Below are positions 25,312 to 57,543 of a stretch of 64,000 nucleotides of DNA, piece by piece. The notes beneath the pieces are model-generated. The model ran no database searches. It worked only from the letters and a program-made list of their open reading frames with translations, and was not told where the DNA came from. The stretch comes from a bacterium (lineage in GTDB: Bacteria > Pseudomonadota > Alphaproteobacteria > SP197). Numbering within the stretch: the stretch's first letter is position 1; every line of letters begins with the position of its first letter. Made by a program: the position numbers and the translations under genes. Where the stretch lies: positions 26,857 through 90,856 of the forward strand of contig JAPPGE010000088.1 in assembly GCA_028821455.1 (NCBI GenBank), written 5' to 3'.

Positions 25312-25316
25312 GCGCC

Positions 25317-26516: not shown

Positions 26517-26535
26517 GTCCGGCCAGGAGACGGGC

Positions 26536-32802: not shown

Positions 32803-32824
32803 TCCGCAGACGGCATCAGAACCC

Positions 32825-33751: not shown

Positions 33752-33784
33752 GACCGGCAACGACAAGGTCGTGAGAACAGCGAC

Positions 33785-38563: not shown

Positions 38564-40165
38564 CTACGCGGTGGGATCGCGGAACCACCAACGCTCCAGG
38601 CACTTGATGCCGTCGAGATCCCAGGCTGCCGACATGCGTCCGTGAGCGATGTTTTCGCTGACTGCGAAGACGTAGTTGGAGAAGATTGGAGCCACCACAC
38701 CGCCATCATCGCTGCACAACTGCTGCATCTCGTGATACATCTCCCGCCTGAGTTCGGTATCGAGTTCCGCCCGGGCGAGAATCAGGAGTTCGTTGAAACG
38801 CGGGTTGGCCCAGTGAGTCTCGTTCCACGGGGCACCGGCAGCATAGGTCTGCGAAAACACCCAGTCCTCGGTGACCCGACCACTCCAGTAGGACGCCACC
38901 CAGGGCTCCACGTTCCAGACATCCGACCAGTAGCCGTCGTTGGGCTCGCGGGTGACGTCGATGGTGATCCCGGCAGCAGCAGCGTGCTGCTGGTAGAGGA
39001 CGGCTCCGTCGGTGGCGCCGGCAAAGGCGGTTTCCGCCACATTGAGAGGCACCGTGATCTCCGTCAGGCCGGCCTTGCCGAGGTAGTGCCTTGCTTTGTC
39101 CGGGTCGTAGACACGCTGTGGCAGATCTTCGGCAAAGTACCGGTTGGACCGGCCGATCGGATGATCGTTTCCGACATAGCCGTGGCCGTTCAGCAGTTTG
39201 GTGAGAAGTTCCTCTCGATCAACGGCGTACTTCAACGCCAGACGGACATTGGGATCGTCGAAAGGCGCACGGTCGCACATCATCGAATAGACGTAGTGCA
39301 GGGTGCCTTGAGTCTCCTCCAGACGCACACCGGGCGCGGCATCGAGAAGGTCAGCGGTCTTCAGGTCAACCCGGTCGATCACGTGAACCGTACCGGATGT
39401 CAGGGCCGATACACGGGCCGTCACATCGATGGTCGACAGCACCTCGGCTTCGTCGAAGAAGGCCTGACCTGACTTCCAGTAGTTGGGATTGCGCGTCAGG
39501 AATGACCGCACGCCCGGTTCGAACTCGTTGAGGACGAACCCGCCCGTTCCGTCGCCCGACTGCCAGTCGAGAACACCGTCCACGACGGGACAGATCGCAA
39601 TATGGTAGTCGCTCAACAGGAACGGAAAGTCTGCATTGCCCTCGCTCAGTTCAAAGGTGACGGTGTCCTTGCCGTCCGCCTTCATGTTGACGATCGCGGA
39701 CAGAATGCCCTTGGCGGGTGACGCCGAGTTTTCGCCCGTATGGTGGGCGACCGATGCGATCACATCATCCGCATCGAGCGTCTTGCCGCTGTGGAACTCG
39801 ACGCCCTGTCGCAGCTTGAAGGTCCAGTTTGCCGCGTCCGGAGTCGATTCCCAGCTTTCGGCAAGTTCACCGATCAGTTCATCCTCGTTGGAAACTTCGG
39901 TGAGACAGTTGCGGAAACCGAATCCAACGACTTGCATGTAGGTGTCATTGTAGGTGGCGGGGTCCACCGAATCGGTCGTCGATCCCAGACCGAGGGCAAC
40001 ACGGACCCGGCCGCCCATCTGCGGCTCGTCCGCCCTGGCCTCCTGCGTGGCAAGCGCGGTCGCGGTGGGCAGGGCCACCCCGCACGCCAGGGCATGCGCG
40101 ATGAACTCGCGCCGGGTGATATGGTTCTGCCGCAACAGGTCCAGCTTGTGTTCGATCGAACTCAT
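38564..40165 (-). CDS. ABC transporter substrate-binding protein, family 5 (peptide/opine/nickel type) with Tat signal
   Basis: ATG 40165 preceded by AAGGAGG. RREFIAHALACGVALP twin-arginine signal. Family-5 SBP length (533 aa). Confidence 0.8.
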   Translation of the reverse strand: MSSIEHKLDLLRQNHITRREFIAHALACGVALPTATALATQEARADEPQMGGRVRVALGLGSTTDSVDPATYNDTYMQVVGFGFRNCLTEVSNEDELIGELAESWESTPDAANWTFKLRQGVEFHSGKTLDADDVIASVAHHTGENSASPAKGILSAIVNMKADGKDTVTFELSEGNADFPFLLSDYHIAICPVVDGVLDWQSGDGTGGFVLNEFEPGVRSFLTRNPNYWKSGQAFFDEAEVLSTIDVTARVSALTSGTVHVIDRVDLKTADLLDAAPGVRLEETQGTLHYVYSMMCDRAPFDDPNVRLALKYAVDREELLTKLLNGHGYVGNDHPIGRSNRYFAEDLPQRVYDPDKARHYLGKAGLTEITVPLNVAETAFAGATDGAVLYQQHAAAAGITIDVTREPNDGYWSDVWNVEPWVASYWSGRVTEDWVFSQTYAAGAPWNETHWANPRFNELLILARAELDTELRREMYHEMQQLCSDDGGVVAPIFSNYVFAVSENIAHGRMSAAWDLDGIKCLERWWFRDPTA

Positions 40166-41460
40166 GATAAGCCTCCTTGTTGTGAAGTGGGTTGGTTCGC
40201 CAGTCGTCGCGCGGACCTGGACCGGTGCATGACGGCCTGCAACAGGACATTGCAGCCGGCCTCGAGATCGGCGGGTTTGGCGCTTTCGGCTTCGTTGTGA
40301 CTGACTCCGCCGGCGCAGGGCACGAAGATCATCGCGGCAGGCGTGGTGTGACAGATCTGGCAGGCGTCGTGGCCCGCGCCGGACACCATGTCGAGGTGAA
40401 AATAGCCAAGGGAGCGGGCGGCGTTTCGCACCGCATCGACGCAGTCGCGGTCGAAATGCACCGCCGGATTGCGCCAGATCTCGTCGATCTCGAGAGCCAC
40501 GCTTTCGCTCCGGCAAGCCGCCTCGGTCCGTCCCCGGAAACTCGCGTCCATCTCCGCCAGCACCTCGTCGTCGGGATGGCGCAGATCGACGGCAAGCCGC
40601 ACCAAGCCGGGCACGGTGTTGCGCGAGTTGGGGATCACATCGAGTTGGCCGACCGTGCCAACCGCTTTCGGAGAATGATCGAGCGCCGCATGGCGTGCGG
40701 CGAAGACGACGCCCGCCGCGGCAACCAGGGCGTCGCGCCGACCCGCCAGCGGCGTCGATCCGGCATGCGCGTCCTGGCCGCCCAGCGTCACGTCGTACCA
40801 GCGTTGTCCCTGGCCACCGAGCACGACGCCGATCGTCCGTCCTTCCCGCTCCAGGATTGGCCCCTGTTCGATATGGGCTTCGAAGTAGGAATCGAACGCG
40901 CGATCGCCGCAGGGCTCGTCACCCAGATAGCCAATGCGATCCAGTTCCGCTCCCAGAGTCCTGCCATTGCCGTCGGTTCGTCCAAGGGCGAACGCGCGGT
41001 CGAAAAGGCCGGCGAAAACGCCGGATGCGAGCATCGCGGGCGCGAACCTGGCACCTTCCTCGTTGGTCCAGACCACCACGTCGACCGGCGCCTCGGTCTC
41101 GACGCCGTGCTCGTTCAGCGTCCGGATCACCTCGAGCCCCGCGAGCACTCCATAGACGCCGTCGAAACGGCCGCCGTGGGGCTGGGTATCGAGATGGCTG
41201 CCGGTCGCCACCGCCGGCAGGCCTTCCCGGCGTCCGGGACGACGGGCGAAAATGTTGCCCATATCGTCCACCGAGATCCGGCACCCGGCGTCGCGACACC
41301 ACGATACGAACAGATCGCGCCCTGCCTTGTCCTCGTCAGTCAGCGCCAGGCGACGGCAGCCGCCGGCGGGCGTGGCGCCGATCCTGGCCATCTCCATGAT
41401 GCTGCACCACAGACGGTCTCCATCGACGCGCGGAGACGGACAGTCCATGGCGCTCGCCAT
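40162..41460 (-). CDS. M20-family amidohydrolase of the hydantoinase/carbamoylase type (allantoate amidohydrolase / N-carbamoyl-L-amino-acid hydrolase-like)
   Basis: Internal ATG 2 nt downstream of the upstream gene's stop. M20 metal-ligand pattern (H..D..E..H) and dimerisation-domain region. Confidence 0.75.
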   Translation of the reverse strand: MASAMDCPSPRVDGDRLWCSIMEMARIGATPAGGCRRLALTDEDKAGRDLFVSWCRDAGCRISVDDMGNIFARRPGRREGLPAVATGSHLDTQPHGGRFDGVYGVLAGLEVIRTLNEHGVETEAPVDVVVWTNEEGARFAPAMLASGVFAGLFDRAFALGRTDGNGRTLGAELDRIGYLGDEPCGDRAFDSYFEAHIEQGPILEREGRTIGVVLGGQGQRWYDVTLGGQDAHAGSTPLAGRRDALVAAAGVVFAARHAALDHSPKAVGTVGQLDVIPNSRNTVPGLVRLAVDLRHPDDEVLAEMDASFRGRTEAACRSESVALEIDEIWRNPAVHFDRDCVDAVRNAARSLGYFHLDMVSGAGHDACQICHTTPAAMIFVPCAGGVSHNEAESAKPADLEAGCNVLLQAVMHRSRSARRLANQPTSQQGGLS

Positions 41461-42412: not shown

Positions 42413-43363
42413 ATGAAAAATGGTAATATGCCTTCTTATACAAGCAAAACGCAGGCACCACGCCTGCACAAGGCGGACCTCCATCTCCTCATGGTCTTCA
42501 TGACAGTCGTGGAATGTGGCGGATTCGCTGCTGCCCAGGTCACACTCAACGTCAGCCAGTCGACCATCAGCCGGCAGATCGGCAATCTGGAACAGCGTCT
42601 CGGCATGCGACTGTGCCAGCGTGGACGGGCCGGGTTCTTTCTGACCGACAAGGGACGGACCGTCTATGAGGCGTGTCAGCATCTTTCGACCGCGCTCGAG
42701 AGCTTCCGAACCACGGTCGGCGCCTTGCGCGGTGAACTCGTCGGCGATCTTTCAATCGCCGTGATCGACAACTGGGCGACCGACCGTGGCTTCCCATTGG
42801 CCGATGTTCTCTCGACCTTCAGGGCCAAGGCCCGAAAGGTCCACATTCACTTCCACACGTTGGCGCCCGACGAGATCGAGCGGGCCGTCCTGGAGAACAG
42901 GGTCAACCTCGGGATCGGCGTCTTTCACCAGCGCCGTCCGGGGCTGGTGTACGAGGTGCTCTATGACGATCCCGTCGAACTCTACTGTGGCGTGAACCAT
43001 CCACTGTTTGACCGGAACCCTCCCCGTGCAAACGACGTCGAGAATGCCGATCTGGCGCACCGCGCCTATCTGTCAGAGAGCCAGGTGGCACCGCTCACGG
43101 CGCACCTGCCGTCATCTGCATCGGCACGCCAGATCGAAGGCCTGGCTTTTTTCATTCTTTCGGGCTGGCACGTTGGTTACCTGCCCGTCTCCTATGCCGA
43201 ACGATGGGTCACTGCCGGACGCATGAAGAGCATCCTGCCGGACGTCTACCGCCGAATCACGCGGATGGAGCTTGTGATGCGCCGAGGCGTCACACCAACA
43301 CTTGTGGGCCAGACTTTTGCCGACATATTGCGCGAAACCACGCAACCGATGCGAAGCTGCTAG
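42413..43363 (+). CDS. LysR-family transcriptional regulator
   Basis: N-terminal HTH (LHLLMVFMTVVECGGFAAAQVTLNVSQSTISRQIGNLE) and a LysR substrate-binding domain. Confidence 0.85.
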   Translation: MKNGNMPSYTSKTQAPRLHKADLHLLMVFMTVVECGGFAAAQVTLNVSQSTISRQIGNLEQRLGMRLCQRGRAGFFLTDKGRTVYEACQHLSTALESFRTTVGALRGELVGDLSIAVIDNWATDRGFPLADVLSTFRAKARKVHIHFHTLAPDEIERAVLENRVNLGIGVFHQRRPGLVYEVLYDDPVELYCGVNHPLFDRNPPRANDVENADLAHRAYLSESQVAPLTAHLPSSASARQIEGLAFFILSGWHVGYLPVSYAERWVTAGRMKSILPDVYRRITRMELVMRRGVTPTLVGQTFADILRETTQPMRSC

Positions 43364-43394: not shown

Positions 43395-43665
43395 GGCGGA
43401 AGGGTAGCGGGTGAAAGTCCCGTGGAAAGAAAGGAGTAGCTGACCGCGACTCTCCGCAAGCCGTGCGCCGTCGGTCGTGAAGCCGGTGGTGAAGTGTCGG
43501 TAGCGGTGCATGCGAGCGGTGAACACCTGCGTGACAAAGGCCAGCGTGGACGTCGAAGAGACCGTACCCGCCACGATCGGATTATGATTGAGGTTGATCG
43601 GACAGTGCTCCAGTCATGAGTGGAGCCAGGATTGTCCGCCACGCGGCCATGTCGCCTTCCGAGTG
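43395..43665 (+). ncRNA. candidate cobalamin (AdoCbl) riboswitch-like leader element, copy 1
   Basis: In order on the plus strand: GAAGGG..GGTGAAAGTCC (43410-43420), AGCTGACCGCG, CCCGCCAC (43567-43574, B12-box-like), GGAGCCAGGATTGTCCGCC (43622-43640). Matched from memory of the consensus; not covariance-tested. Confidence 0.4.
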
Positions 43666-43985
43666 GCTGAGGTGACGGTGCCGACAATGCTCTTCGCCGA
43701 GATCCTGCGCCGACTCAAGGCGTCCGTTTGTCATGCGTTGCAGCGCGATTCACAGGAGAGGCGCACCTTGATCGCGATCGATCTGTCCTCTGGCTCATGG
43801 CAGACGATTTCGGGAAAGACAGCGCAGTAACCGCCCAGCGTGCGGATCGGTTGCCGGTTCACATTGGGAATTCGGGCAGGACAAGCGTCCACGGCTCAAT
43901 CGGACATCTGTGTGCATGGATTCCGTCGGGACGTTGGTCTACCGTGCCGCTCACCATCATGATGTCGCAGCACAGGAGGACACGA

Positions 43986-45154
43986 TCATGCCCAAAGCCA
44001 TGAACATCGAGGAGTTTCGTTCACGCATCGATAACTGTGATCTGACGCGACGGCAGGCGGCAGGTGCACTGGCCGCGGCTGGCGTCGGTCTGACGACGAT
44101 GACGTTCGGCCCGGGCGGCGTGCGCGCCCAGGATTCCCTGCCGGTCGACGATTCGCTGCAGGTATTTGAGTGGGGCGGTTATGAGCTGCCCGAATTCTAC
44201 GTGCCTTATGTCGAAAAGCATGGGGCAACGCCGGCGTTTGCCCTGTTTGGCGAGGAAGAGGAAGCGTTGCAGAAGCTTCGCTCCGGCTTTCGATCAGACA
44301 TCGGCCACCCGTGCGTCGGCAGCACCAGGCGCTGGCGCGATGCCGGCATCCTGCAACCGATCGACACCAGCCGACTGACCCACTTCTCCGATGTTTTCCC
44401 GAGTTTGAAAGTCCTGCCGGGCAGCATCGACGAAAACGGTTTGACCTATTTCATAGCGGCCGACTGGGGCAACTCGTCGGTCCTGTTCCGCCCCGATCTG
44501 GCACCGGAGTATGTCGATACGGAGGACCAGAAGAACGAGTCGTGGGCCATCCTGTTCGATGAAAAGTATGCCGGGCGCCTCGGCATCTTCGATTCGGTGG
44601 ACGGCGTCATGGCCGTCGTCGGCTCGGTGGTCGGTGCCGAAGACCCCTTTGACATGACCGATGCCGAGTTGGAGGAGGCGACGAAGCTCTTGCGCAAACA
44701 GCGCGAAATCCTGCGCTTTTACTGGACCGATCAAACCAGCGTCGAACAGGCGCTCGCCTCGGGCGAAATGGTCGCGTCCTATGCCTGGAACAGCGCCATC
44801 GTCGAACTCAAGAAACAGGGCGTCAATGTCGTCTACATGAACCCGAAGGAAGGCATCTGGACCTGGGTGTGCGGCTTGACGCTGCTTGTCGACGGTCCAG
44901 GCGACCAGAACAAGGCTTATGAGTTCATCGACGCCTGGATCTCGCCGGCGTCCGGCAAGAACCTGATCGAGATGTACGGTTACGGCCACTCCAATGCCAA
45001 GTCGTTCGAACTGGTCGATGCGGCCGTCCTCGAAAACCTCGGCATCACGGATCCGGATACGATGATGGCGAACAGCCGCTTCTTCGGCGAGATCAAACCG
45101 GAAGTGCGCGAGAAGTACATCGTCCTCTTCGACGAGATAAAGGCCGGTTTCTAG
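43986..45154 (+). CDS. orphan PotD/PotF-family (family 1) ABC substrate-binding protein with Tat-like signal
   Basis: N-terminal LTRRQAAGALAAAGVGL signal. PotD/PotF-like fold pattern. No adjacent permease or ATPase. Confidence 0.75.
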
Positions 45155-45299
45155 GAGCGCCTCTGGGAGAAAGAGGGATCGGCGACACAATTTGAGACAC
45201 CCGTGATCGGGTAGTGCCTGCCTCGAGCTTCACCGCGCATGCGCAGGCGGCGTGCAAGGCGTCGGCCGGACAGGGGCCGGCTGGCGTCAGCGCCCGTTC

Positions 45300-45530
45300 G
45301 GGCGATCCGTTCTGAAGGGCCCGTTTGCGGGTGAAAGTCATCCGGTCCCCGCAATTCGAGTGCCTGTGGGCTAAAGCGGCGAATGCCAAGCGCTGGCGCA
45401 TCCGATCGCGGTCGCGGGGCGACCCGCGTTCCGATGCGCCAGGCGGGTTCCTCGCCTGGTCCACAATGAGGCACATCAGGGGCTGGTCGGGGCGCCCAGG
45501 GGTGTCTCCATTGAGGACCTGCGCCATTCA
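45300..45530 (+). ncRNA. candidate cobalamin riboswitch-like element, copy 2, inside an ~840-nt noncoding gap
   Basis: GAAGGGCCCGTTTGCGGGTGAAAGTC (45330-45339 is GGTGAAAGTC), CCCCGCAA (45347-45354), 3' GAGGACCTGCGCC (45513-45525). Shares the GCGGGTGAAAGTC core with copy 1. Confidence 0.35.
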
Positions 45531-45997
45531 CTAGCCAAGCGGGGTTGAGGCTCGGTTGCGGCACGGTCCAACGCTGCATGGAACGCCACGGCGGCCTCGG
45601 TCGTGTGAATTCGCGGCTGACGCAGACGGTGCAGAGTGCCCCGGGCAAGCCCTTTATCGCGAACACCTCCTGGAGCATCCACGCGGCCGGGCCCATCGGA
45701 ACACGTCGAGCCGGTAGTCTCCAACAGCCCCCCTGCCTTCCTCCTCGTCGGCAGCCGGTAGCGTCGGAAGCCCCGCTCCGATAGCTCTGCTGCACCCCGC
45801 GCCGAAGGACGCTTCGCCTCGAAGGCCGTGACACATCGGGGGATTCCTCCTTCCATGGTTCCTGTAGCCATGGCGTCCGGTTCATCACGGCCTTCGTCAC
45901 CAGACAACTCGTGTGCCGCCACATGGCGAACAGGTGCGCTTGCCGCGGTTGTGGCGGGGGTGGCAGGATGCGGCCTCAGGCTGAAAGGGAACTTGCG

Positions 45998-46309
45998 ATG
46001 TACAGGATCGATCCCGGACGCACCGATCTGGCCGAGGAATTCCGGCGCAATCCCTTCGGACCGCACAGTGCCGAGCTCCAGAAGGTGCTCAATGTCATGC
46101 GATGGGAGCCCATCGAAGGCAAGTATGTCCTGGTCAACACGGTTCCTCACAAGGAGTGGTGTCTCGCCCAGCTTCCGGGGAAGCGCGGTGTGCCGGTGAC
46201 GCTCCACGAGGACGTGGTGTTCACCGACCTCGGCGAGGCCGAGTGGTACATCTTCAGACTGCGCTGGAAGAAGCACACCGGGGTTGATCTGGACCAGGCC
46301 TCTCAATGA
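45998..46309 (+). CDS. small subunit of a two-subunit N,N-dimethylformamidase-like amidohydrolase (DmfA1-like)
   Basis: 103 aa, ATG 45998 preceded by AAAGGGA, stop overlaps the large-subunit start (ATGA). Assignment rests on size and coupling to the large subunit. Confidence 0.5.
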   Translation: MYRIDPGRTDLAEEFRRNPFGPHSAELQKVLNVMRWEPIEGKYVLVNTVPHKEWCLAQLPGKRGVPVTLHEDVVFTDLGEAEWYIFRLRWKKHTGVDLDQASQ

Positions 46310-48546
46310 CCTTCGATTACCGCAGACGCATCCTGGGCTACCCGGATCGCGTTCGTGCAAGGCCGGGCGAAACCATTGACTTCAAGATCAGTCTCGAAGA
46401 CCACGAGACCTTCTTGTTCAGGACCGTTCGCATCGTCTGCGGTGTCGAGACTCCGGACGGCGCTCCCTACCGCGAGGTTGAAATCGAGACACCGGCAAAC
46501 GGACTCCACGAAGGCTCCTGTCAACCCATCGATGCCGGTTCCTACGCGATCATCCCCTCCGCACCAATCCTTGACCGGCTTTCGACCTTCACGTTCCAGG
46601 CCTTCATCATGCCGACCCTTCCCGGCGACGGACGCCAGGCCATCGTCAGCCGTGGCTCGGGTCCCGGACGACCCGGTTTCGCGGTCATTCTTGATCTGGA
46701 GGGCGCCCTTGCCCTGATGGTGGGCAACGGTCATGACCTCGTCACCGTTTCGACCGGCAGATCCCTTCAACCGTGGAAATGGGTCTTTGTGACGGCAAGC
46801 TACGACGCAGCGAACGGTTCGGTCACGCTGAGCCAGGAACCGCTCATCCATACCGGCGACTCCAGCAGTCCCGAGCGTATCACGGGGCATGCGCCGCCCG
46901 GCGTGGTCTTCGCGGCCGATCATGACCTCCACATGGCTGCCTGGCAGACCGGATGGCATGAGGATGGCAGACCCCGAATGGTCGGACACTTCAACGGGCG
47001 TATCGACAGTCCGCGCCTTGCCTCGAGGATTCTCGAAGCTCACCAGACAGCGGCACTGGCACGGTCGGGGCCGACGCCGGCCGACGGGGTTGTCGGCGCC
47101 TGGGACTTCGCGGCTGACATTCCCGGCGACACCTTCCCCGACCGTTCCGGCAACGCTCTTCACGGTCGTCTTGTCAATCTGCCCTCGCGGGGGGTGACCG
47201 GACGGCAGTGGGACGGATCCTGCCATGACTGGAGGGAGTGCCCAGACCACTACGCGGCCATTCACTTTCACGACGACGATCTCTTCGACGCCGGCTGGCG
47301 GACCACCGTATCCATGGCCGTGCCCGAGTCTCTCGCCAGCGGAGTCTATGCCGCGCACTGCCAGGCCGGAGATGACACGTGCCACATTCCCTTTGTCATC
47401 GTTCCCGAACGCGAGGCGCCGAGGGAACGCGTCGCCTTTCTCGCCTCCACGGCCACCTGGCTTGCCTATGCCAACAACCACTGGCAACTGGACGAGGAAA
47501 AAGCCGAGGTGAAGCGCGGGCGGATCATCGACTACAGCCCCGACGAACTCTTCCTCCATGAACGGCGCGATCTCGGTCTTTCGACCTATGATACGCATCG
47601 CGACGGATCGGGCGTGTTCTACAGCTCGCGGCTGCGGCCACTGGTGAACAACTACAGTCCGAAGTCGGCGATCTGGAGTTTCAACGCGGACACGCACGTC
47701 ACCGACTGGCTGGAGGCTTCCGGAATCCCGTTCGACGTCGTCACGGACGAAGACATTCACGAGGACGGTGTCGCGGCCCTTGCCGACCACCGGGTCATCA
47801 TCACCGGGACTCATCCGGAGTACTGGTCGACGGACATGCTGGATGCGCTGGCCGCCTATTTCGATCGTGGCGGCAGGCTGATGTACCTTGGCGGTAACGG
47901 GTTCTACTGGCGCATCGCCTGTCATCCCACGCGGGGTGGCGAGGCCATCGAGGTGCGGCGTCCGGAGTCGGGAGCGCGTTTCTGGGCCTCCCGCCCGGGC
48001 GAATATCATCTCTCCTTCAGCGGCGAGAGGGGAGGATTGTGGAAACACATTGGCCGCCCTCCGCAGTCACTCGTCGGTGTCGGCACCTTCGCCACCGGAT
48101 TCGATCGGTCGGGCTGGTTCGTCAAGAAGCCGGACATCGATGACAACCCCCGTGCATCCTGGATCTTTGAGGGTGTCAAGGGCGACATCATCGGTGATTT
48201 CGGTGTCCTGGGTGGCGGAGCGGCAGGCATCGAACTCGACGGTGCCGACGAGGCTCTGGGCACGCCGCCGGAGACCATCGTGCTGGCGAGTTCGGACGGC
48301 CATTCCGCCTACTACATGCAGTCACCCGACGAGATTGTCTTCAACCATGCAGCCGTCACCGGGGACGCCAATCCCAGGGTACGAGCAGACATGGTGTACT
48401 TCACGTTGCCGTCGGGCGCCGGTGTCTTTTCCACCGGCTCCATCAGCTGGGCTGCAAGCCTGGGCTGGAACGGCTACGACAACAACGTGGCACGGATTAC
48501 CGGCAATGTCGTGCGCCGGTTTGCCGCCGACGCGGCCCTGCCCTGA
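46306..48546 (+). CDS. N,N-dimethylformamidase large-subunit-like protein (DmfA2-like)
   Basis: 746 aa, translationally coupled to the small ORF. Domain pattern and length fit the DMFase beta-subunit family. Family assignment is from memory, not searched. Confidence 0.55.
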   Translation: MTFDYRRRILGYPDRVRARPGETIDFKISLEDHETFLFRTVRIVCGVETPDGAPYREVEIETPANGLHEGSCQPIDAGSYAIIPSAPILDRLSTFTFQAFIMPTLPGDGRQAIVSRGSGPGRPGFAVILDLEGALALMVGNGHDLVTVSTGRSLQPWKWVFVTASYDAANGSVTLSQEPLIHTGDSSSPERITGHAPPGVVFAADHDLHMAAWQTGWHEDGRPRMVGHFNGRIDSPRLASRILEAHQTAALARSGPTPADGVVGAWDFAADIPGDTFPDRSGNALHGRLVNLPSRGVTGRQWDGSCHDWRECPDHYAAIHFHDDDLFDAGWRTTVSMAVPESLASGVYAAHCQAGDDTCHIPFVIVPEREAPRERVAFLASTATWLAYANNHWQLDEEKAEVKRGRIIDYSPDELFLHERRDLGLSTYDTHRDGSGVFYSSRLRPLVNNYSPKSAIWSFNADTHVTDWLEASGIPFDVVTDEDIHEDGVAALADHRVIITGTHPEYWSTDMLDALAAYFDRGGRLMYLGGNGFYWRIACHPTRGGEAIEVRRPESGARFWASRPGEYHLSFSGERGGLWKHIGRPPQSLVGVGTFATGFDRSGWFVKKPDIDDNPRASWIFEGVKGDIIGDFGVLGGGAAGIELDGADEALGTPPETIVLASSDGHSAYYMQSPDEIVFNHAAVTGDANPRVRADMVYFTLPSGAGVFSTGSISWAASLGWNGYDNNVARITGNVVRRFAADAALP

Positions 48547-48571
48547 ATCATCGGTTGGGAGGAGGAAAGGC

Positions 48572-50776
48572 ATGCGGCGGCTTCTCGGATATGCCGACAG
48601 GATCAGCGTCAGGCCAGACGAGACCATCAACTTCAAGGTATCAAGCGAGGACGAGGGCACCTTCCATCTCGACATCCTTCGTATCCGTTGCGGTGATGAC
48701 ACGCCGGCTGGACCGGGCCTCAAGGAGACGCCTGTCGAGGCCCGGGTAAACGGCGACTATCCGGCACGCTTCCAGAAGACGCAGGTCGGTTCCTTCGTTT
48801 CGGTCGATCATCCCCGGACACCGGCTCTGGAGAGCTTTACGCTGCAGGCGATGGTCTGGCCGACGCTTCTCGAGAAGGACGAACAGACCATCATGGGCTC
48901 GTGGCATGCCGGTCACCGCAAGGGCTATGCGATCGGCGTCGTCAACGGGAGACTCACTCTCACGATCGGCGATGGCAGCAGTATCGAAACACTGGTCTCT
49001 TCCGCCAGCATGCACGAACGCCACTGGTATCTCGTGGCCGCGACCTTCGACTCCGCGACAGGCGAGGCCACCCTCATCCAGGAGCCTCTCGTGCGCTATG
49101 CCGGCGATGCCGACAGTGCACGGACGACACGACCCATGGATGTCCGACCGGGAAACGGCGGCAGATTCATCATTGCCGGCCACAACAGCGATGACGGCGT
49201 CAGCGGTCTCTTCAATGGCAAGATCGATACACCGGCAGTGACCTCGCGTGTGCTCGAACGCGGCCAGATGGAGCACCTTCTGGATCGGCGCATTCCTCCC
49301 GAGGTCGCCGCCGATGTGGTCGCCCTGTGGGACTTCAGCCGCGAAATGAACGGCGTGACGGCCCACGACATCTCGCCGAACCGGCTTCACGGCACTATCG
49401 TCAACATACCCACGCGAGCCATGAAGGGCTGGAATCACGACGGCAGCGAGATGGTCTGGACCCACCGGCCGGAGCACTACGGCGCCATCCACTTCCATGA
49501 CGACGATCTCTATGACTGCGACTGGGAAACGGACGCCGCCTGGCACGTGCCCGCCAACTGCCGGAGCGGCGCCTTTGCCGCCTTCCTGACCCAGAACGAC
49601 CAGTGGTTCTATATCCCCTTCTATGTCCGCCCGCCGACCGGACGTCCGGGGGCACGCTTGGCCCTCTTGATTGCCACTTGCAGCTACTATGCCTACGTCA
49701 ACAATCACATGCCGATCGGCTGGGGTGACATGGGTGAGCATTCCGGCAACGCCTTCAGCGTGATCGACATGACCGACATTCACCTTCACATGCACCCGGA
49801 GCACGGACTGTCGATGTATGACAACCACAGCGACGGCTCCGGCGTGGCCTATGCCTCGCGTCTGCGCCCGTTCCTGCGCATGGGTCCACGAGACGATCTC
49901 TGGCAATACAACGCCGACACCCACATCACCGACTGGCTCGAGGAACAGGGGATCGCGTTCGATGTCATCACCGACGACGACCTCGACGCCGAGGGTGTGG
50001 CCCTTCTCGAACCCTATGCTTCAGTCATGACGACGACGCATCCCGAGTACACCACCACGGGAATGATGCAGGCCCTGCTTCACTACCAGCAGCGGGGCGG
50101 CCGCTTCATCTACATGGGCGGCAATGGCTTCTACTGGCGGGTGGCGCTTCACCCAACTCTTCCCGGGGTCATGGAAATGCGGCGGGCCGAGGACGGCATG
50201 CGCAGCTGGATCGCCTCGCCGGGTGAATACGTCATGAGTTTCAACGGAGAACTCGGCGGCCTGTGGCGGCGCAACGGCATGAGCCCGGAGGCGATCTGCG
50301 GCACGGGCTTCGCCGCCCAGGGGTTCAATTTCGCCCGGCCCTACACGCGAACCCCGGCGAGCGAGGATTCGCGTGCCTCCTGGATCTTCGAAGGCATCGG
50401 CCGCGACGAGAAGATCGGCGACTTCGGATCCGTCTTCGGCGGTGCCGCCGGAGCCGAGATCGACAGTATCGACCCTCAGGAAGGCACACCGCCCCACGCC
50501 CTCGTCGTCGCCGAGGCCACCGACTTCGGCGTCGATTTCCACTGGGTCAACGAGGAGTTCCTTCACACGCATTCCGCCGTCAACGGCGAGAACTGTCCCC
50601 ACGTGCGCTGTGACATGGTGTTCTACGAAACACCCAACGGCGGCGCGGTCTTCTCGACCAGTTCCATCGCTTTTGCCGGATCCCTTGCCCACAACGGTTA
50701 CGACAACAACGTCAGCCGCCTGCTCTCCAATGTCGTCAACCGCTTCCTCGATCCCGAACCCATCCCGTCACCCTGA
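48572..50776 (+). CDS. second N,N-dimethylformamidase large-subunit-like paralog (no adjacent small subunit)
   Basis: 734 aa, GGAGGA RBS. Clearly paralogous to the preceding gene along its whole length (shared HFHDDDL, YDNNV, GGNGFYWR blocks). Confidence 0.55.
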   Translation: MRRLLGYADRISVRPDETINFKVSSEDEGTFHLDILRIRCGDDTPAGPGLKETPVEARVNGDYPARFQKTQVGSFVSVDHPRTPALESFTLQAMVWPTLLEKDEQTIMGSWHAGHRKGYAIGVVNGRLTLTIGDGSSIETLVSSASMHERHWYLVAATFDSATGEATLIQEPLVRYAGDADSARTTRPMDVRPGNGGRFIIAGHNSDDGVSGLFNGKIDTPAVTSRVLERGQMEHLLDRRIPPEVAADVVALWDFSREMNGVTAHDISPNRLHGTIVNIPTRAMKGWNHDGSEMVWTHRPEHYGAIHFHDDDLYDCDWETDAAWHVPANCRSGAFAAFLTQNDQWFYIPFYVRPPTGRPGARLALLIATCSYYAYVNNHMPIGWGDMGEHSGNAFSVIDMTDIHLHMHPEHGLSMYDNHSDGSGVAYASRLRPFLRMGPRDDLWQYNADTHITDWLEEQGIAFDVITDDDLDAEGVALLEPYASVMTTTHPEYTTTGMMQALLHYQQRGGRFIYMGGNGFYWRVALHPTLPGVMEMRRAEDGMRSWIASPGEYVMSFNGELGGLWRRNGMSPEAICGTGFAAQGFNFARPYTRTPASEDSRASWIFEGIGRDEKIGDFGSVFGGAAGAEIDSIDPQEGTPPHALVVAEATDFGVDFHWVNEEFLHTHSAVNGENCPHVRCDMVFYETPNGGAVFSTSSIAFAGSLAHNGYDNNVSRLLSNVVNRFLDPEPIPSP

Positions 50777-50886: not shown

Positions 50887-52974
50887 TCAGCAAGAATCGG
50901 AAAGGGGAACGACGAGAACATCCAGAGCGATGGCGCCTCGGTCCGTGATAAGGAGAGGATTGACGTCGAGCGCATCGAGGTAGGGCCCGAGTTCGAGGGC
51001 CAGGGTCGACATCTTCATGACCGCATCGACGAGAGCACCGGAACCGACAGCGGCACCGCCGCGCCACCCCTCGAGAAGCCGGGTGAGTTTCAGGCAGGCG
51101 AGAGTTTCCTCGACCTCCAGGCGCAAGACCGGAGGACGGTAGGCGGTCACGTCGTCAAGAAGCTCGACGAGTACACCGCCGGCGCCGGCAAGAACGACGG
51201 GGCCGAACTGGGGATCGCGGGTCATCCCTACCATGGCTTCGATGCCGTCTCCGGCCATGGCCGCCACCATGCAACGTGGCCCCAGGGCCCTGGCCATGGT
51301 GCGCCAGGCATGGATGAGGCCGGCGTCATCGGCAAGGCCGGTCACGACGCCTCCTACATCCGACTTGTGGGCGATGCCCGGCATCGCCGTCTTCAGAACG
51401 ACAGGATAGCCGATCTCTCCTGCCGCCTTGCGGGCGCCTTCTTCGCTGTCGATGATCGCATGGCGCGGTGTCGCGACACCGTAGTCCTCAAGAAGCGCCA
51501 GGCCGGTCGCCTCATCGGCATCGCGCAGGCGCTCCCCCCAGTAAAGCGCTCGCTCCATGTCGGGACGCACGGGCACAGCGGCCGGACGCCGTCGCCAGTT
51601 CCTGCGCCAGAAGGCATGGGAGACGGCCTTGAGACCCGGTACGCTCCCATCGAGGACCGGCAGGTCGTGGTTGTGGGTGAAGTCCCACGCAAGTTCGTGG
51701 TGGTCGGTGCCGGAGTGGTTGGTGATGAGCGCCACGGGTTTCGTCGTCGTCGAGGCCGCAGCCAGGCAGGCGTTTGCGCAGGCGCGGCTGTAGCCGTTGT
51801 GTTGCGACACGTCGAGGAAGAAGGCTCCCAGCGCCGTTGACGGATCGTCCATGAGGGCTGCAAAGCAGTCGCGCATGACGCCGTCGTGATCGACCCCGGT
51901 CCCGAAGGCGTCACAGGGGTTCTCCGCATCGAGGCCGTAGTCGAGGCGTTCTCCAAGACTGGCTCTCGTTTTCTCGCCAATGACGGCGAACGGAACGCCG
52001 AGATCGCTGGCCAGGTCGCAGATCATCTCGCGCTCGCCACCGGAATCGTGGATCGTCGCAAGGGCGCCGTCTCCGACATCCCTCGCCCGGGCAAGCAGCA
52101 GGGACGTGGCAATGAGTTCATCGATCGTCGAGACCCGCAGCACTCCGTGCTTGCGAAAGACGGCGTCGATGGTCCGGTCATCGCCGGCAAGGGCTCCGGT
52201 GTGGCTCACCGCCATGCGTGCCGCCATGTCGGAACGGCCCGCCTTGAGCGCCACCACGGGCACGTCCCTTGCCTGCGCCTTTTCGAGAACCGCTTCGAAC
52301 CCTTGCGGATCACGGATCGTCTCGAGAAAGAGGGTCAGCACCCGCGCCGTGCCGAGTTCGAGGGCATAGTCCATGTAGTCGACGACCGTTGCCGAGGTCT
52401 CCCGACCGACGGAGGCCGCGAAATTCGGTTTCAGGCGGCTTCCCGCGAGGCAGCCGAAGACCGACCCGGACTGGGCCAGGACCGTGATCCGTCCAGGATC
52501 GAACTGCGGGAAACGGTAGGAATTGACGTGGATGGCGGCCTCATAGTTGCAGAATCCCATGCAGTTGACGCCGATCGAGGGAACATCAGCCTCGCGCAGC
52601 ATCGCTTCGAGACGCTCGGCAAGCGCCGGTTCCCTGTCGCCCGGCACGACACAGCTGCCGAAGATCGCCACCGCCCTGACACCTGCCTCGATGGCCGCCG
52701 TCACCTGATCCTCGACACGGGTGTCGCCGACCGCCATGACGGCAAGGTCGACCGGGTCCGGCAGGTCTGCCAGCGACGGATGACAGACATGTCCGGCAAC
52801 CTCTCGATAGCGCGGGTTGACCGGGTAGACCGGTCCGTCAAAATCGAGATCGCGGAATGTCTCGAGAACACTGCGTCCTGTCGCATGTTCGCGCGCCGTC
52901 GCTCCCACCACCGCCACCGATGACGGCACGAGCAGAGGCTGGAGCCGATGCGCGATACGCCGGCGCCGCATCAT
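50887..52974 (-). CDS. ADP-forming acyl-CoA synthetase (acetate-CoA ligase family; CoA-binding + succinyl-CoA-synthetase-like + ATP-grasp)
   Basis: N-terminal CoA-binding Rossmann (SVAVVGAT), phosphohistidine-loop region (SHTGALAG), C-terminal ATP-grasp. Internal ATG chosen to avoid overlap with the upstream gene. Confidence 0.8.
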   Translation of the reverse strand: MMRRRRIAHRLQPLLVPSSVAVVGATAREHATGRSVLETFRDLDFDGPVYPVNPRYREVAGHVCHPSLADLPDPVDLAVMAVGDTRVEDQVTAAIEAGVRAVAIFGSCVVPGDREPALAERLEAMLREADVPSIGVNCMGFCNYEAAIHVNSYRFPQFDPGRITVLAQSGSVFGCLAGSRLKPNFAASVGRETSATVVDYMDYALELGTARVLTLFLETIRDPQGFEAVLEKAQARDVPVVALKAGRSDMAARMAVSHTGALAGDDRTIDAVFRKHGVLRVSTIDELIATSLLLARARDVGDGALATIHDSGGEREMICDLASDLGVPFAVIGEKTRASLGERLDYGLDAENPCDAFGTGVDHDGVMRDCFAALMDDPSTALGAFFLDVSQHNGYSRACANACLAAASTTTKPVALITNHSGTDHHELAWDFTHNHDLPVLDGSVPGLKAVSHAFWRRNWRRRPAAVPVRPDMERALYWGERLRDADEATGLALLEDYGVATPRHAIIDSEEGARKAAGEIGYPVVLKTAMPGIAHKSDVGGVVTGLADDAGLIHAWRTMARALGPRCMVAAMAGDGIEAMVGMTRDPQFGPVVLAGAGGVLVELLDDVTAYRPPVLRLEVEETLACLKLTRLLEGWRGGAAVGSGALVDAVMKMSTLALELGPYLDALDVNPLLITDRGAIALDVLVVPLSDSC

Positions 52975-52990
52975 TCCGGCAATGGGCCGT

Positions 52991-54232
52991 TCAGAAGAAA
53001 ACGTATGAGCGAACCACGATGTTCTTGCGGCACGGCGCATCGGCGGGTGCGCCGGGATCGAAGCAGGCGGAGTGGAAAGACCACCTGGAAACTGATCCGT
53101 CGGTGATGGAATCGTAACACTTCAGCATGGATATCTCGTTGGGCTGCTGGCGTGGAAACCAGTACCAATCGTGGTCCGGGCGATAGGTGAACCGGGTGGT
53201 CTCTCCGACGCGATCGTCATAGATGCGGTAGTTCGTGATGTAGGGCTGATCGGCGAAGGAAGGCCAGGCACACAGGATGAAGGGATACTGCTCGACCGTC
53301 TCGAAGGGTTTGGCGAGATTGATCGACATGAATCGGCGCGACATCTTGGCATCGGCTTCGGCCTCGGAGTAGTGCTGCTCGCGTCCGAAGTTTCGCAGGT
53401 TCTGCGTCAGCAACTCCCGGCACCGCACACGCCCGGAATTGTCGTTGAGATCGTTGTGCACGAGATTGACATATCCGGTGTTCACTCCGGGGTTCTTCGC
53501 GTCCTGATCTTCCCTGACCGGGCCGTCGTAGTCCCGGTTGAAGATGTCGTGATTGTAGACGAGAGCATCGGTGGCACCGGGAAAGAAATCCATGAGAAGC
53601 CGCTCGATTTCCGGATAGAAGACGCGTTCCACTTCCACGGCGTTGTAGAAGTCGGTGCAGCTGGAGTCGAGGTGGGCCAGGGAGACTCCCAGCTTGTCCA
53701 TGCACTCGGGCGCGGTAACGGAAGGCCTTCCAGGGGTTTCTCCGATCCTGCGGGCATCGCGCACCACCTGGGGGAAATAGAGCGAACGCCTCCAGAGGTT
53801 CTCTTCCGCCTGGCGCAACAGGTCTGCTTCCTTTCGCCGCGTCGGATCCTGCCAAAGGTGATTCGACGACACGACGGAATAGGACGGATGCTCGTAGACG
53901 GTATAGCGCAGCGGCAGCACCACTCCTCCCTCGGGTGCTTTCATGCCGCTGGCGCGAATGTGCTCCATGCACTCATCCCAGGTGCGGAAACCGGTTCCCC
54001 GCCTGGTTTGCACAGGACCAGGGGGCGCATCCTCGATCCAGCGAATGAAATCGTCGACATGGCCCAGCGCAATCTGTTCGAGCGCGGCGTTGAGCGCCGC
54101 CCCGGTCCCCGCATCGCCATCGCGCTCGAATGATGCAAAGGAGAGACCGCCATTGGCTGCCACCGGCTCCGGTTGTCCGCTGGTGATTTCCAGAGACGGC
54201 ACCCAGGCCGTCTGGATTCCACGTCCGTCCAT
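52991..54232 (-). CDS. conserved hypothetical 413-aa protein (copy 1 of tandem pair); HxD-containing, possibly a non-haem-iron oxygenase-like fold
   Basis: Start MDGRGIQTAW with GGGGGA RBS, 16 nt upstream of acs. No family recognised. LVHNDLND motif. Confidence 0.6.
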   Translation of the reverse strand: MDGRGIQTAWVPSLEITSGQPEPVAANGGLSFASFERDGDAGTGAALNAALEQIALGHVDDFIRWIEDAPPGPVQTRRGTGFRTWDECMEHIRASGMKAPEGGVVLPLRYTVYEHPSYSVVSSNHLWQDPTRRKEADLLRQAEENLWRRSLYFPQVVRDARRIGETPGRPSVTAPECMDKLGVSLAHLDSSCTDFYNAVEVERVFYPEIERLLMDFFPGATDALVYNHDIFNRDYDGPVREDQDAKNPGVNTGYVNLVHNDLNDNSGRVRCRELLTQNLRNFGREQHYSEAEADAKMSRRFMSINLAKPFETVEQYPFILCAWPSFADQPYITNYRIYDDRVGETTRFTYRPDHDWYWFPRQQPNEISMLKCYDSITDGSVSRWSFHSACFDPGAPADAPCRKNIVVRSYVFF

Positions 54233-54345
54233 CTGATCCCCCGCAAGGCGTCTGTCGCTTGGCCCTACTTTGAGCCCATCGAAGGCGGATTCGCAAGTCC
54301 CGGGCGACTCCACCGCCAGGAGCAGTGGTCAATGGGGAATACAGC

Positions 54346-54576: not shown

Positions 54577-55818
54577 TCAGAAGAACACGTACGAGCGAAC
54601 CACGATGTTCTTGCGGCAAGGCGCGTCAGCGGGTGCACCGGGATCGAAGCAGGCAGAGTGGAAAGACCACCTGGAAACGGATCCGTCGGTGATGGAATCG
54701 TAACACTTCAGCATGGAAATCTCGTTGGGCTGCTGGCGTGGAAACCAGTACCAGTCGTGGTCCGGGCGATGGGTGAACACGGTGGTCTCTCCGACCCGGT
54801 CGTCATAGATGCGGTAGTTCGTGATGTAGGGCTGATCGGCGAAGGAAGGCCAGGCACACAGGATGAAGGGATATTGCTCGACGGTCTCGAACGGTTTGGC
54901 GAGATTGATCGACATGAACCGGCGGGACATCTTGGCATCGGCCTCGGCCTCCGTGTAGTGCTGCTCGCGTCCGAAATTCCGCAAGTTCTGCGTCAGCAGC
55001 TCCCGGCATCGCACACGCCCGGAATTGTCGTTGAGGTCGTTGTGCACGAAATTGACATACCCGGTGTTGACTCCGGGGTCCTTCGCATCCTGGTCTTCCC
55101 TGACCGGGCCATCGTAGTCCCGGTTGAAGATGTCATGATTGTAGACGAGGGCATCGGTGGCATCGGGAAAGAAATCCAGGAGAAGCCGCTCGATTTCCGG
55201 ATAGTAGACGCGTTCCACTTCCGCTGCGTCGTAGAAATCGGCGCAGGTGGAATCGAGGTGGGTCAGAGAGACCCCGAGCCTGTCCATGCATTCCGGCGTG
55301 GTGACCGAGAGACCTCCAGAGGTTTCCTCGATCCTGCGGGCATCGCGTACCACCTGGGGAAAATAGAGGGAACTCCGCCAGATGTTCTCTTCCGCCTGGC
55401 GCAACAGGTCTGCTTCCTTTCGCCGCGCCGGATCCTGCCAAAGGTGATTCGACGACACGACGGAGTACGACGGATGCTCGTAGACGGTGTAACGCAACGG
55501 CAGCACCACCCCGCCATCGGGTGCCTCCACGCGGCTGGCGCGAATGTGGTCCATGCACTCGTCCCAGGTGCGGAACCCGGTTCCCCACCTTGTTTCCACG
55601 GGACCAGGGGGCGCATCCTCGATCCAGCGAATGAAATCGTCGACATGGCCCAGGGCGATCTGCTCGAGCGCAGCATCGATCGCCGCCCGGGTCCCCGCAT
55701 CGCCATCACGCTCAAATGATGCAAAGGAGAGACCGCCGTTGGCGGCCACCGGCTCCGGCTGTCCGCTGGTGATCTCAAGAGACGGCACCCAGGCCGTGTG
55801 GATTCCACGTCCGTCCAT
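54577..55818 (-). CDS. conserved hypothetical 413-aa protein (copy 2, about 95% identical to copy 1)
   Basis: Start MDGRGIHTAW with GAGGG RBS. Nearly identical at protein and DNA level to 52991..54232. Confidence 0.6.
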   Translation of the reverse strand: MDGRGIHTAWVPSLEITSGQPEPVAANGGLSFASFERDGDAGTRAAIDAALEQIALGHVDDFIRWIEDAPPGPVETRWGTGFRTWDECMDHIRASRVEAPDGGVVLPLRYTVYEHPSYSVVSSNHLWQDPARRKEADLLRQAEENIWRSSLYFPQVVRDARRIEETSGGLSVTTPECMDRLGVSLTHLDSTCADFYDAAEVERVYYPEIERLLLDFFPDATDALVYNHDIFNRDYDGPVREDQDAKDPGVNTGYVNFVHNDLNDNSGRVRCRELLTQNLRNFGREQHYTEAEADAKMSRRFMSINLAKPFETVEQYPFILCAWPSFADQPYITNYRIYDDRVGETTVFTHRPDHDWYWFPRQQPNEISMLKCYDSITDGSVSRWSFHSACFDPGAPADAPCRKNIVVRSYVFF

Positions 55819-55912
55819 CTCAGCCCTCGCAAGATGTCTGCTGCATGGACTACTTTGGACCCATCGCAGGCGGGGTCGCAAGGCCCGGGTCACGCCACGC
55901 CGGGAGCCGCGG

Positions 55913-56386
55913 TCAATAGGGAATCCTGCCGGTCGTCCGGTTCCAGGCGTCGAAAGTAGCAATCGCTTCGTTCGCCAACAGCCTTCGCGCGGTGATGGAC
56001 CGTTGAGATATGGCCAGCGCCACCTCGCGGTAGATGAGGTCGTCATCGAAACCGATCCGGGCCGCATCCTCCCTGGTGTTGCCATAGACGATTCGGGAAA
56101 GCCGCGCCCAGTAAATGGCGGCAAGACACATCGGACAGGGTTCGCAACTCGTGTAGATGACACACCCTTCCAGAGAAAAGGTGGAGAGTGTGCGGCAGGC
56201 GTCGCGGATGGCTACGATCTCGGCGTGAGCCGTGGGATCATGGTCGGTGGTCACGCGATTGGCGCCTTCGCCGACGATCCGGCCATCGCACACGACGACC
56301 GCGCCGAAGGGCCCGCCTTCGAGTGTCGTCACGCTGGCGTCTGCAAGGGCGATGGCCCGTCGCATGAAGGCAGCATCATCAGGCAT
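55913..56386 (-). CDS. CDA-fold nucleoside/nucleotide deaminase (TadA / guanine-deaminase-like)
   Basis: HAEIVAIR and PCPMC zinc-binding motifs. Confidence 0.8.
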   Translation of the reverse strand: MPDDAAFMRRAIALADASVTTLEGGPFGAVVVCDGRIVGEGANRVTTDHDPTAHAEIVAIRDACRTLSTFSLEGCVIYTSCEPCPMCLAAIYWARLSRIVYGNTREDAARIGFDDDLIYREVALAISQRSITARRLLANEAIATFDAWNRTTGRIPY

Positions 56387-57267
56387 CAGGAGTCCTGCCG
56401 ACTGCGCACATGGCGCACACCGAACTCGGGCGCCCTCTCCTCGACTCCGGCAAAGTAGAAGGCGTTCATCTCGCGCAGCATGGCATCGATCGGGCGAAGG
56501 CCTGCCGGGTCAAGGTCGAAGACGGGTTCGGGTTCGGGCCTGAAATGACCGAACCTGTCCTTGCCCCGGACAAGCGTCGCATAGTCGACTTCACCCACCA
56601 CCTGTCTCATTTCCGGCGTGATGAACCGCAGGGCCAGGCCGATCCGCCTCGATGCCGAAGGGTTCGCCGGGGAGGAATGATAGAGGCTGCCGTGATGAAG
56701 CGACATCTCGCCAGACTTCAGCTCCACGTCGACCGCCTCATCCTCGTCAACGTCGACTGCCAATTCCTGCCCTCTTGAGAGCTGGTTCAACTCGCGCCAG
56801 GTGTCCCGGTGCTCGACCATGCCGTGGCGGTGGGAGCCGGGTATGAACCGCATGGCGCCATTGTCCCGGGTCACGTCGCCCAGCGCGATCCAGGCGGTGG
56901 TTTCGCGTGTGTCGTCATCGAGGCCCCAGTAGCGCAGATCCTGATGCCAACCGACGAAATCCGTCGTGTGGGGCTCCTTGATGAAAAAACCGGCGCTCCA
57001 CAGGAGAAGATCGGGGCCCATCAGCGACTCGACGGGATCGAGAACGCGGCTGTCCCTCGCCAGCGCATGAATCCCGGGCAACACGAGATGGGGAACATTG
57101 AAGGTATACTGGAAGACATGGGGCTGATCGCGGGTACGATCGAGCAGATCCTCGGTTTCCTGACGGAGATCACGCGCCTCGGCGGACGAGATCGCCGGCA
57201 CGGGGAAGAGATAGCCCCGCTCGTGGTAGGCGTCCGCGGACGCGCGGTCGAGAAACCCTCGTGTCAT
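56386..57267 (-). CDS. phytanoyl-CoA dioxygenase (PhyH) family Fe(II)/2-oxoglutarate dioxygenase
   Basis: GWHQDLRYWG HxD region and distal His (GSLYHSS). PhyH/EctD-like length. Confidence 0.7.
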   Translation of the reverse strand: MTRGFLDRASADAYHERGYLFPVPAISSAEARDLRQETEDLLDRTRDQPHVFQYTFNVPHLVLPGIHALARDSRVLDPVESLMGPDLLLWSAGFFIKEPHTTDFVGWHQDLRYWGLDDDTRETTAWIALGDVTRDNGAMRFIPGSHRHGMVEHRDTWRELNQLSRGQELAVDVDEDEAVDVELKSGEMSLHHGSLYHSSPANPSASRRIGLALRFITPEMRQVVGEVDYATLVRGKDRFGHFRPEPEPVFDLDPAGLRPIDAMLREMNAFYFAGVEERAPEFGVRHVRSRQDS

Positions 57268-57543
57268 GTCGCTCCTCCTTGCCTGTCAGAGATGTCCGGC
57301 ACGCCTGGTGCCGGGTGTGATTCCGAAGATCCTGCAGCGCGCCGAAATCCAGCTTCCCGAACCTGTCGCCAGGCGACCTCCATCCCGTCAGCCGTGGTCC
57401 CGGACCGGCGATCACCCGAGGCGGGCAGGATCGCCGATTCGTCCCGGACACGGGCGACGTGGTGTCCGGGAATCACGGATCGAAGGCTGGTACAGGAAGA
57501 AAGCACGTCGCTTGGCCGTCCATTGCGGGGTGATCTTGCGATT

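Follow-up and report, generated by a model that had tools for sequence, protein, structure and literature searches.

How many catalytic subunits can a single small subunit serve? The question is raised by a locus in a 64-kilobase (kb) stretch of contig JAPPGE010000088.1, from the genome of an uncultured marine alphaproteobacterium, the whole of which is referred to here as the window. Within it a small gene (S) of the N,N-dimethylformamidase (DMFase) type is followed on the same strand by two large-subunit genes (A and B), the first of which overlaps S. An earlier interpretation made from the letters alone (the sequence-only reading) had described S and A as a two-subunit pair and B as a paralogue without a partner. 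On balance, we think it probable that A and B share the one S and form two distinct enzymes, S-A and S-B, that act on different amides. The features at issue are as follows, with lengths in amino acids (aa) and distances in nucleotides (nt).

45998..46309, + strand: S, small (alpha) subunit gene, 103 aa; ATG at 45998, TGA at 46307-46309
46306..48546, + strand: A, large (beta, catalytic) subunit paralogue, 746 aa; its ATG overlaps the S stop codon (ATGA)
48557..48565, + strand: ribosome-binding site of B, GGGAGGAGG, 6 nt ahead of the B ATG, read directly in the sequence
48572..50776, + strand: B, second large (beta, catalytic) subunit paralogue, 734 aa; its ATG lies 25 nt past the A stop codon

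Gene content and coding potential

The positions of these open reading frames (ORFs), the ATGA coupling of S to A and the placing of B directly behind A with a strong ribosome-binding site of its own, all described in the sequence-only reading, were confirmed. The guanine plus cytosine (G+C) content at third codon positions is high in the S, A and B frames, as it is in genuine genes of this genome, which has an overall G+C of about 63% (60-66%). Moreover, the ratio of nonsynonymous to synonymous substitution rates (dN/dS) against six relatives is 0.03-0.11 for S, the lowest of the three, 0.10-0.15 for A and 0.09-0.14 for B, values that indicate purifying selection on all three genes. Given these ratios, and the 94 clusters of S homologues that were found, the three are not chance ORFs. 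A and B can be aligned end to end, with 42% identity. A tblastn search of the window recovered neither a second S-like gene nor any large-subunit paralogue besides A and B.

Conservation of the DMFase active site

Both large subunits carry PF20254 (DMFA2_C; E = 5e-91 for A and 4.6e-85 for B) plus Laminin_G_3, and the domain search assigned neither of them to an unrelated family; NCBIfam holds no model matching S, A or B. Residues 9-745 of A match residues 6-759 of the DMFase large subunit 6lvb_A (E = 1e-139), whilst B matches residues 6-760 (E = 4.4e-150), and both have the three-domain architecture of that subunit, with homology over the full length. The second-best structure match for each is an N-acetyl-(R)-beta-phenylalanine acylase, 8huy (E = 5e-127 for A and 4e-143 for B). 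A small-subunit gene of the DMF_alpha family adjoins a large-subunit gene at this locus. Therefore, the assignment to the DMFase-type two-subunit family, proposed in the sequence-only reading, is borne out by DMFA2_C, by the full-length matches to 6lvb_A and by the family of S.

For the active site we aligned 53 large subunits, namely A, B and a third paralogue, C, from related loci, two other large subunits, DMFase and the acylase. The iron of DMFase is held by Y399, Y440 and E521, and H519, N547 and E657 are essential (PMC7686228). All six residues are invariant in 53/53 sequences, A and B included, and the Tyr/Tyr/Glu iron triad that the sequence-only reading had suggested looking for is thus present in both. 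The pocket of DMFase is another matter. Its large subunits dimerise and F693 from the neighbouring large subunit forms part of it, a gate that limits the pocket to small formamides (PMC7686228). At this position Phe is found in all A sequences, Phe or Tyr in C, Leu in the acylase and His in all 23 sequences of the B clade, where the gate motif is THTHSA. The residues beside the iron ligands are likewise clade-specific across the alignment. Since the catalytic residues are invariant, the gate and flanking residues are clade-specific and the genes are under purifying selection, A and B both look like working enzymes, with pockets that differ.

Identity of the small subunit

When searched as a single sequence against solved structures, S gave a weak match to the small subunit of DMFase (6lvb_B, E = 0.098). 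The local Pfam search returned no match for S itself, despite PF26354 (DMF_alpha) being precomputed on all 94 S homologue clusters, with relatives up to 98% identical to S among them. A profile built from 38 S homologues, however, matches 6lvb_B with E = 1.1e-8 over positions 4-91, nearly the whole length. The AlphaFold model of S has a mean predicted local distance difference test score (pLDDT) of 93.6 and superposes on 6lvb_B with a template modelling (TM) score of 0.72 and a root-mean-square deviation of 1.6 Å; no other fold in the PDB was matched by it. From the annotated relatives, the profile match and the modelled fold we identify S as a genuine DMFase small subunit, conserved and of the DMF_alpha family, where the sequence-only reading had allowed for a small ORF without conservation.

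S is nevertheless shorter than its counterpart in Paracoccus. The alignment covers residues 37-125 of the 132-residue Paracoccus subunit and leaves some 30-36 N-terminal residues without counterpart in S. It is these residues that form the long helix wedged between two large subunits in Paracoccus (PMC7686228), a feature without match in S. The S model begins as coil, followed by a short helix at residues 9-17, and nearly all members of the S family that were found are 98-110 aa long. The identity of S is 54-59% both to the S of B-type loci and to the S of generic outgroups, values that do not tell a B-lineage from an A-lineage origin. Therefore, the argument for a link between S and B rests on the S-B-only loci and the fusions described below.

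Distribution of the operon and of S-B pairs

Searching with S as the anchor (an 11-sequence S alignment, one genome per species) yielded 34 loci, the large subunits of which were classed by tblastn.

S-A-B, 11 loci: L001-L004, L006-L010, L016, L022
S-A-C-B, with third paralogue C, 6 loci: L012, L013, L015, L017, L019, L021
S-A only: L011; L014, which retains a 97-aa remnant of B
S-B only: L018, L024, L025, L026, with B 70-75% identical to the window B
S plus a B-like subunit: gammaproteobacterial loci L027-L031, 45-57% identity, three of them split or cut short
S plus one other large subunit: L032-L034
S then A, with the contig end reached: L005, L020, L023

S-A-B or S-A-C-B is the arrangement in 17/34 species-level genomes. 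The duplicated large subunit, the consistency of which the sequence-only reading had proposed checking, does recur across these genomes; it is not universal, as S-A-only and S-B-only loci also occur. Moreover, one S with one large subunit is the arrangement both at more distant S homologues (L040, L042) and at the closest relatives of A that are not its orthologues (L043, L045).

A neighbour-joining tree of the large subunits (Kimura distances, 100 bootstraps), with the acylase as an outgroup on a long branch, recovered A (bootstrap 100), C (100), A plus C (94), the alphaproteobacterial B (99) and B together with the gammaproteobacterial and L040 sequences (100). Because of these well-supported clades, A and B are deep paralogues and not the outcome of a recent tandem duplication, with C as the sister of A. 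In the S tree, moderate support was obtained for a grouping of the S of S-A-(C)-B loci with that of S-B loci.

The most direct link between S and a large subunit comes from proteins in which the two are joined. Among the best 120 homologues of B, 69 combine PF26354 and PF20254 in one S-linker-B chain of 835-868 aa (among P0259-P0334, e.g. P0263, P0296 and P0299). Their first 95-98 residues are 44% identical to S and are followed by a linker of about 25 residues and then by a B-type large part, with 52-56% identity to B and the gate motif THTHSA. No fusion to a small subunit was found among the 120 best homologues of A. In addition, three look-ups on unfused B-type proteins (P0240, P0244 and P0221) each revealed DMF_alpha directly upstream and no A, and a B-type protein is the sole large subunit directly behind S in L018, L024-26, L027-31, L040 and L046-48; in all, at least 12 loci have S next to a B-type protein and no other large subunit. 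Given these fusions and this direct adjacency, it is the B lineage that carries the strongest genomic evidence for what would be an obligate 1:1 partnership with S. The description of B as partner-less is thus misleading. B has no S gene of its own in the window, but its lineage is normally paired with or fused to S, and the loci with S and B as the sole large subunit, together with the 69/120 fusions, speak against B being an orphan that lost or never had a partner. A (and C) is the gene lying between S and B.

Several observations on individual loci may be added. Paralogue C lies between A and B in L012, L013, L015, L017, L019, L021 and L035-L037 (e.g. L035 12550-14745); it is about 45% identical to A, has its catalytic residues intact, and its gate residue is Phe or Tyr. 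In L013 and L015 C is separated from B by an unrelated gene, the product of which looks membrane-anchored and glucosaminidase-like from its sequence motif. The B remnant of L014 (13037-13327) is 80% identical to B residues 371-467 over its 97 aa, and the B frame of L015 (16222-18436) is split in two, by a frameshift or an assembly error. The hosts of the fusions include Candidatus Entotheonellaceae and genomes of 8-9 megabases. The S-B locus L038 has a gene for tRNA-Ala(GGC) 115 nt ahead of S (9810-9885; L024 has it in the same place, and compare L018 1215-1290), with a spurious 84-aa ORF called over it, and in L048 transposase genes flank the S-B pair on both sides. The tRNA-Ala gene of L038 and the transposases of L048 suggest that the module is mobile.

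A probable sharing of one small subunit by two enzymes

Under the reading we favour, S, A and B would make up a single operon, with DMFase as the model of its family, the two-subunit amidohydrolases with mononuclear iron. A and B would be separate, catalytically competent large subunits that each use the same S. The assemblies would probably be S2A2 and S2B2, like the alpha2-beta2 DMFase, and each would hydrolyse a different small amide. A (and C) belongs to a different deep branch of the family than B and would either have been inserted between S and B or have been lost later from the S-B-only loci. The physical binding of S to both A and B, the stoichiometry and the difference in substrates are what we infer from sequence. 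S would be needed for activity by analogy with Paracoccus, where the large subunit by itself is inactive (PMC7686228). That S works with A is suggested by the ATGA overlap here and by the loci in which S and A occur without B (L011) or with a remnant of it (L014), whilst the S-B-only loci, the look-ups anchored on B and the fusions point to S working with B. Gene losses in nature support a shared S: L011 and L014 have kept S and A, whilst L018, L024-26 and L048 have kept S and B. Both paralogues are maintained, with 11 S-A-B and 6 S-A-C-B loci among 34 genomes and dN/dS of about 0.1. Different substrates for A and B would be expected from the gate residue, from the clade-specific residues flanking the iron ligands and from the precedent of the amidase AceAB (see below), and it is plausible that N,N-dimethylformamide (DMF) itself is an unlikely substrate here.

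Five points weigh against a shared S of this kind. Because S is without the N-terminal helix that is wedged between the Paracoccus large subunits, its modelled structure suggests that the assembly may differ from alpha2-beta2. Independence from a small subunit is possible within the family, by analogy with the acylase, since that enzyme keeps the catalytic residues and its PDB entries hold no chain like the small subunit. A second S could lie elsewhere in the genome, as the search covered the 64-kb window. The set of loci was anchored on S and is blind to A- and B-type genes that occur without it, for which six look-ups anchored on large subunits partly compensate. Lastly, the grouping in the S tree has no more than moderate support.

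Of the alternatives, the first is that A and B together form one mixed enzyme, S2-A-B, in which the pocket of A would be gated by the His of B and the pocket of B by the Phe of A. The dimerisation of DMFase large subunits, with F693 of one reaching into the pocket of the other (PMC7686228), makes such an enzyme conceivable, and A and B differ at exactly this gate residue, are co-transcribed and are co-inherited in 17 species-level genomes; moreover, a single S gene for two large subunits fits one complex. However, the S-A-only loci (L011, L014) and the S-B-only loci (L018, L024-26, L048) show that neither paralogue needs the other, so that a mixed enzyme would be non-obligate, and in six genomes C sits between A and B. 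A and B are 42% identical, and their dimer interfaces may not be compatible. We therefore regard the mixed enzyme as unlikely.

A second alternative, which is the picture drawn by the sequence-only reading, is that S serves A only and that B works without a small subunit, as N-acetyl-beta-phenylalanine acylase may do. It is S and A that are coupled by the ATGA overlap, whilst B has a ribosome-binding site of its own, the acylase structures hold no S-like chain and in most genomes that carry a large-subunit gene no small subunit is recognised: a strict KOfam search identified one in 41/952 genomes (bioRxiv 10.1101/2021.03.18.435917). Yet the B-type lineage is the one most tightly tied to S, being the only large subunit directly beside it in at least 12 loci and fused to it in 69/120 homologues, and the window B and the B of S-B loci are close orthologues, at 70-75% identity. 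A small-subunit-independent enzyme has no partner in its complex or locus, and here S lies in the same operon. B acting alone is, to our minds, a poor prospect.

Equally doubtful is a combinatorial system, in which the short, wedge-less S would act as a universal adaptor for two or three catalytic paralogues and mixed A-B, A-C and C-B dimers, with the gate residue of each large subunit entering the pocket of the other, would create hybrid active sites whose specificities are found in no homodimer. Were this to be true, three or four genes would be enough for oligotrophic marine bacteria to deal with a variety of small amides that occur in nature.

Finally, that one large subunit is non-catalytic or decaying, be it a scaffold, a regulator or a gene being lost, is highly improbable: B is being lost in some relatives (the remnant in L014, the split frame in L015), but the six catalytic residues are intact in A and B of every genome compared, and both genes are full length, have dN/dS of about 0.1 and are kept across many species.

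Upstream region and gene neighbourhood

A gap of 843 base pairs (bp) separates S from the preceding gene. Its sole part that is conserved across all close relatives is the stretch of about 62 nt directly upstream of S.

45936..45997, + strand: conserved upstream segment, comprising TTGCCG (45940-45945), an 18-nt spacer, CAGGAT (45964-45969), a leader and the S ribosome-binding site

Distant loci have CTTGA-N17-TCTAAT or CTTGA-N17-TCTACT at the position of TTGCCG-N18-CAGGAT. A scan with the sigma-70 consensus called no promoter. An RNA element in the leader was considered and rejected: the leader folds no better than shuffled sequence (z = -0.16), and an Rfam search of 40-56 kb gave no match there, the sole match being a group II intron fragment elsewhere. 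We read the segment as a promoter instead, and the operon appears to have one of its own, of which this would be the candidate element.

The remainder of the gap (45155-45935, about 780 bp) is non-coding, and in close relatives it is variable or 200-370 bp of it are deleted, with flanking genes that are more than 90% identical. A 257-aa ORF on its minus strand is probably no gene, as it has no family match and 34-47% identity in relatives; the stretch, with this ORF, is possibly a decayed gene. An additional conserved gene upstream of S was also rejected, since the small ORFs called in relatives are unconserved, one of them overlying a tRNA-Ala gene.

The neighbouring genes of the operon are listed below, SBP standing for substrate-binding protein.

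38564..40516, - strand: orphan family-5 (peptide/nickel/opine type) SBP; SBP_bac_5, E = 1e-66; start codon uncertain
42413..43363, + strand: LysR-type regulator; HTH_1 and LysR_substrate
43910..45154, + strand: orphan PotF/PotD-like SBP; SBP_bac_8, weak PotF/PotD matches
50887-53040, - strand: ADP-forming acyl-CoA ligase, downstream of B and convergent with it
52991-54313 and 54577-56163, - strand: two tandem CmcJ/NvfI-family oxidoreductase paralogues; NF041278, E about 1e-39; no Pfam match
56386-57285, - strand: PhyH-type dioxygenase, downstream of B

The LysR gene is kept upstream of S in L001-3, L006, L007, L009 and L010 and not in the more distant loci, and possible regulation of the operon by its product may be envisaged. 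The PotF/PotD-like protein had been proposed as the deliverer of the substrate. This gene is poorly linked to the operon, being 843 bp from S, separated from it by the promoter-like segment of the operon and absent from the close relatives L003 and L010 and from all distant loci. The family-5 SBP, which turns up near the operon far more widely, is a better candidate for a functional link. In the window it lies 5.5 kb upstream of the operon, but homologues of it (45-52% identity) lie close behind the last large subunit in L013-L018, L022, L024, L035, L038 and L048. This recurrent SBP has no adjacent permease and often occurs with a GFA-family (PF04828) gene.

The acyl-CoA ligase, the CmcJ/NvfI pair and the PhyH gene are conserved in L001-L010, and a PhyH gene stands directly behind the B-type subunit in L040 and L046. 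A DDAH/amidinotransferase-like gene is present upstream of the operon. Taken together, the neighbours hint at the catabolism of small nitrogen-rich compounds, without naming a substrate.

Two further features of the window may be mentioned. Between the LysR and PotF-like genes there is a match to group-II-D1D4-6 (RF02005) at 43414-43564 (+ strand; E = 1.4e-11, 49.5 bits with the gathering score at 49). No intron-encoded protein is evident alongside, and the match may be a fragment of a group II intron. A purine-catabolism-like block at 25230-34882 (+ strand) comprises a urate oxidase N-terminal domain protein, xanthine dehydrogenase subunits (FAD/2Fe-2S and molybdopterin) and a Bmp/PnrA-type nucleoside ATP-binding cassette transporter, and appears unrelated to the S-A-B operon.

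Implications

DMF is a synthetic solvent, yet genes of the DMFase family are widespread. DmfA proteins of Alpha- and Gammaproteobacteria have been detected in metaproteomes of the open ocean (Pacific) (PMC9477243). An operon that is conserved in uncultured marine Alphaproteobacteria offers a compact route to the natural function of the family. Its draw lies in two or three diverged and catalytically intact large subunits being combined with a single S and a clade-specific gate residue. Moreover, the abundant S-B fusions are independent genomic evidence for the small subunit as an obligate 1:1 partner in the B lineage.

Our literature search, incomplete in its coverage, found no account of a single small subunit sharing an operon with two or three tandem large-subunit paralogues or of widespread S-B fusions, which is weak evidence. 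The arrangement is less unusual than the sequence-only reading supposed, as several large-subunit genes per genome are common (216/952 genomes; bioRxiv 10.1101/2021.03.18.435917) and no chain like the small subunit is present in the PDB entries of the acylase.

Comparison with characterised enzymes

The closest comparison is with DmfA1A2 from Paracoccus sp. strain DMF (6lvb; PMC7686228), which shares the two-gene layout of small and large subunit. A and B are full-length homologues of its large subunit, S has its otherwise unique small-subunit fold (TM score 0.72), and the same two Tyr and one Glu, with the His, Asn and Glu, are present. The Paracoccus large subunit is 36-40% identical to related B-type and generic large subunits, figures that do not refer to A and B themselves. 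The present locus differs in having one small-subunit gene for two large-subunit genes (three in some relatives), in an S that is shorter by about 30 residues and has no wedge helix, and in a His for Phe693 at the gate of B. The host, too, is different, being an uncultured marine alphaproteobacterium and no DMF degrader.

PMC11573777 describes the acetamiprid amidase AceAB from Pigmentiphaga sp. D-2, a homologue of DMFase built of two subunits, with a single large one. It acts on acetamiprid, a xenobiotic, and not on DMF (PMC11573777), and we liken it to the present system by description only. Homology is therefore no predictor of DMF hydrolysis and, by this analogy, AceAB shows how substrates can diverge within the family whilst the alpha/beta design is kept.

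N-acetyl-(R)-beta-phenylalanine acylase (8huy, 8i59, 8i5a) is likewise homologous to A and B over its full length; it shares their six catalytic residues and has a Leu at the gate. Its entries include no chain resembling the small subunit, whereas here S is present and B-type proteins are linked or fused to S.

The natural S-B fusions form the last point of comparison. Each is one polypeptide, so that small and large parts necessarily occur 1:1, and has no second large-subunit paralogue; the S of the window has its own gene, with A as the first gene behind it. The S-A-B operon is a variant layout on the known DMFase family and no new kind of system.

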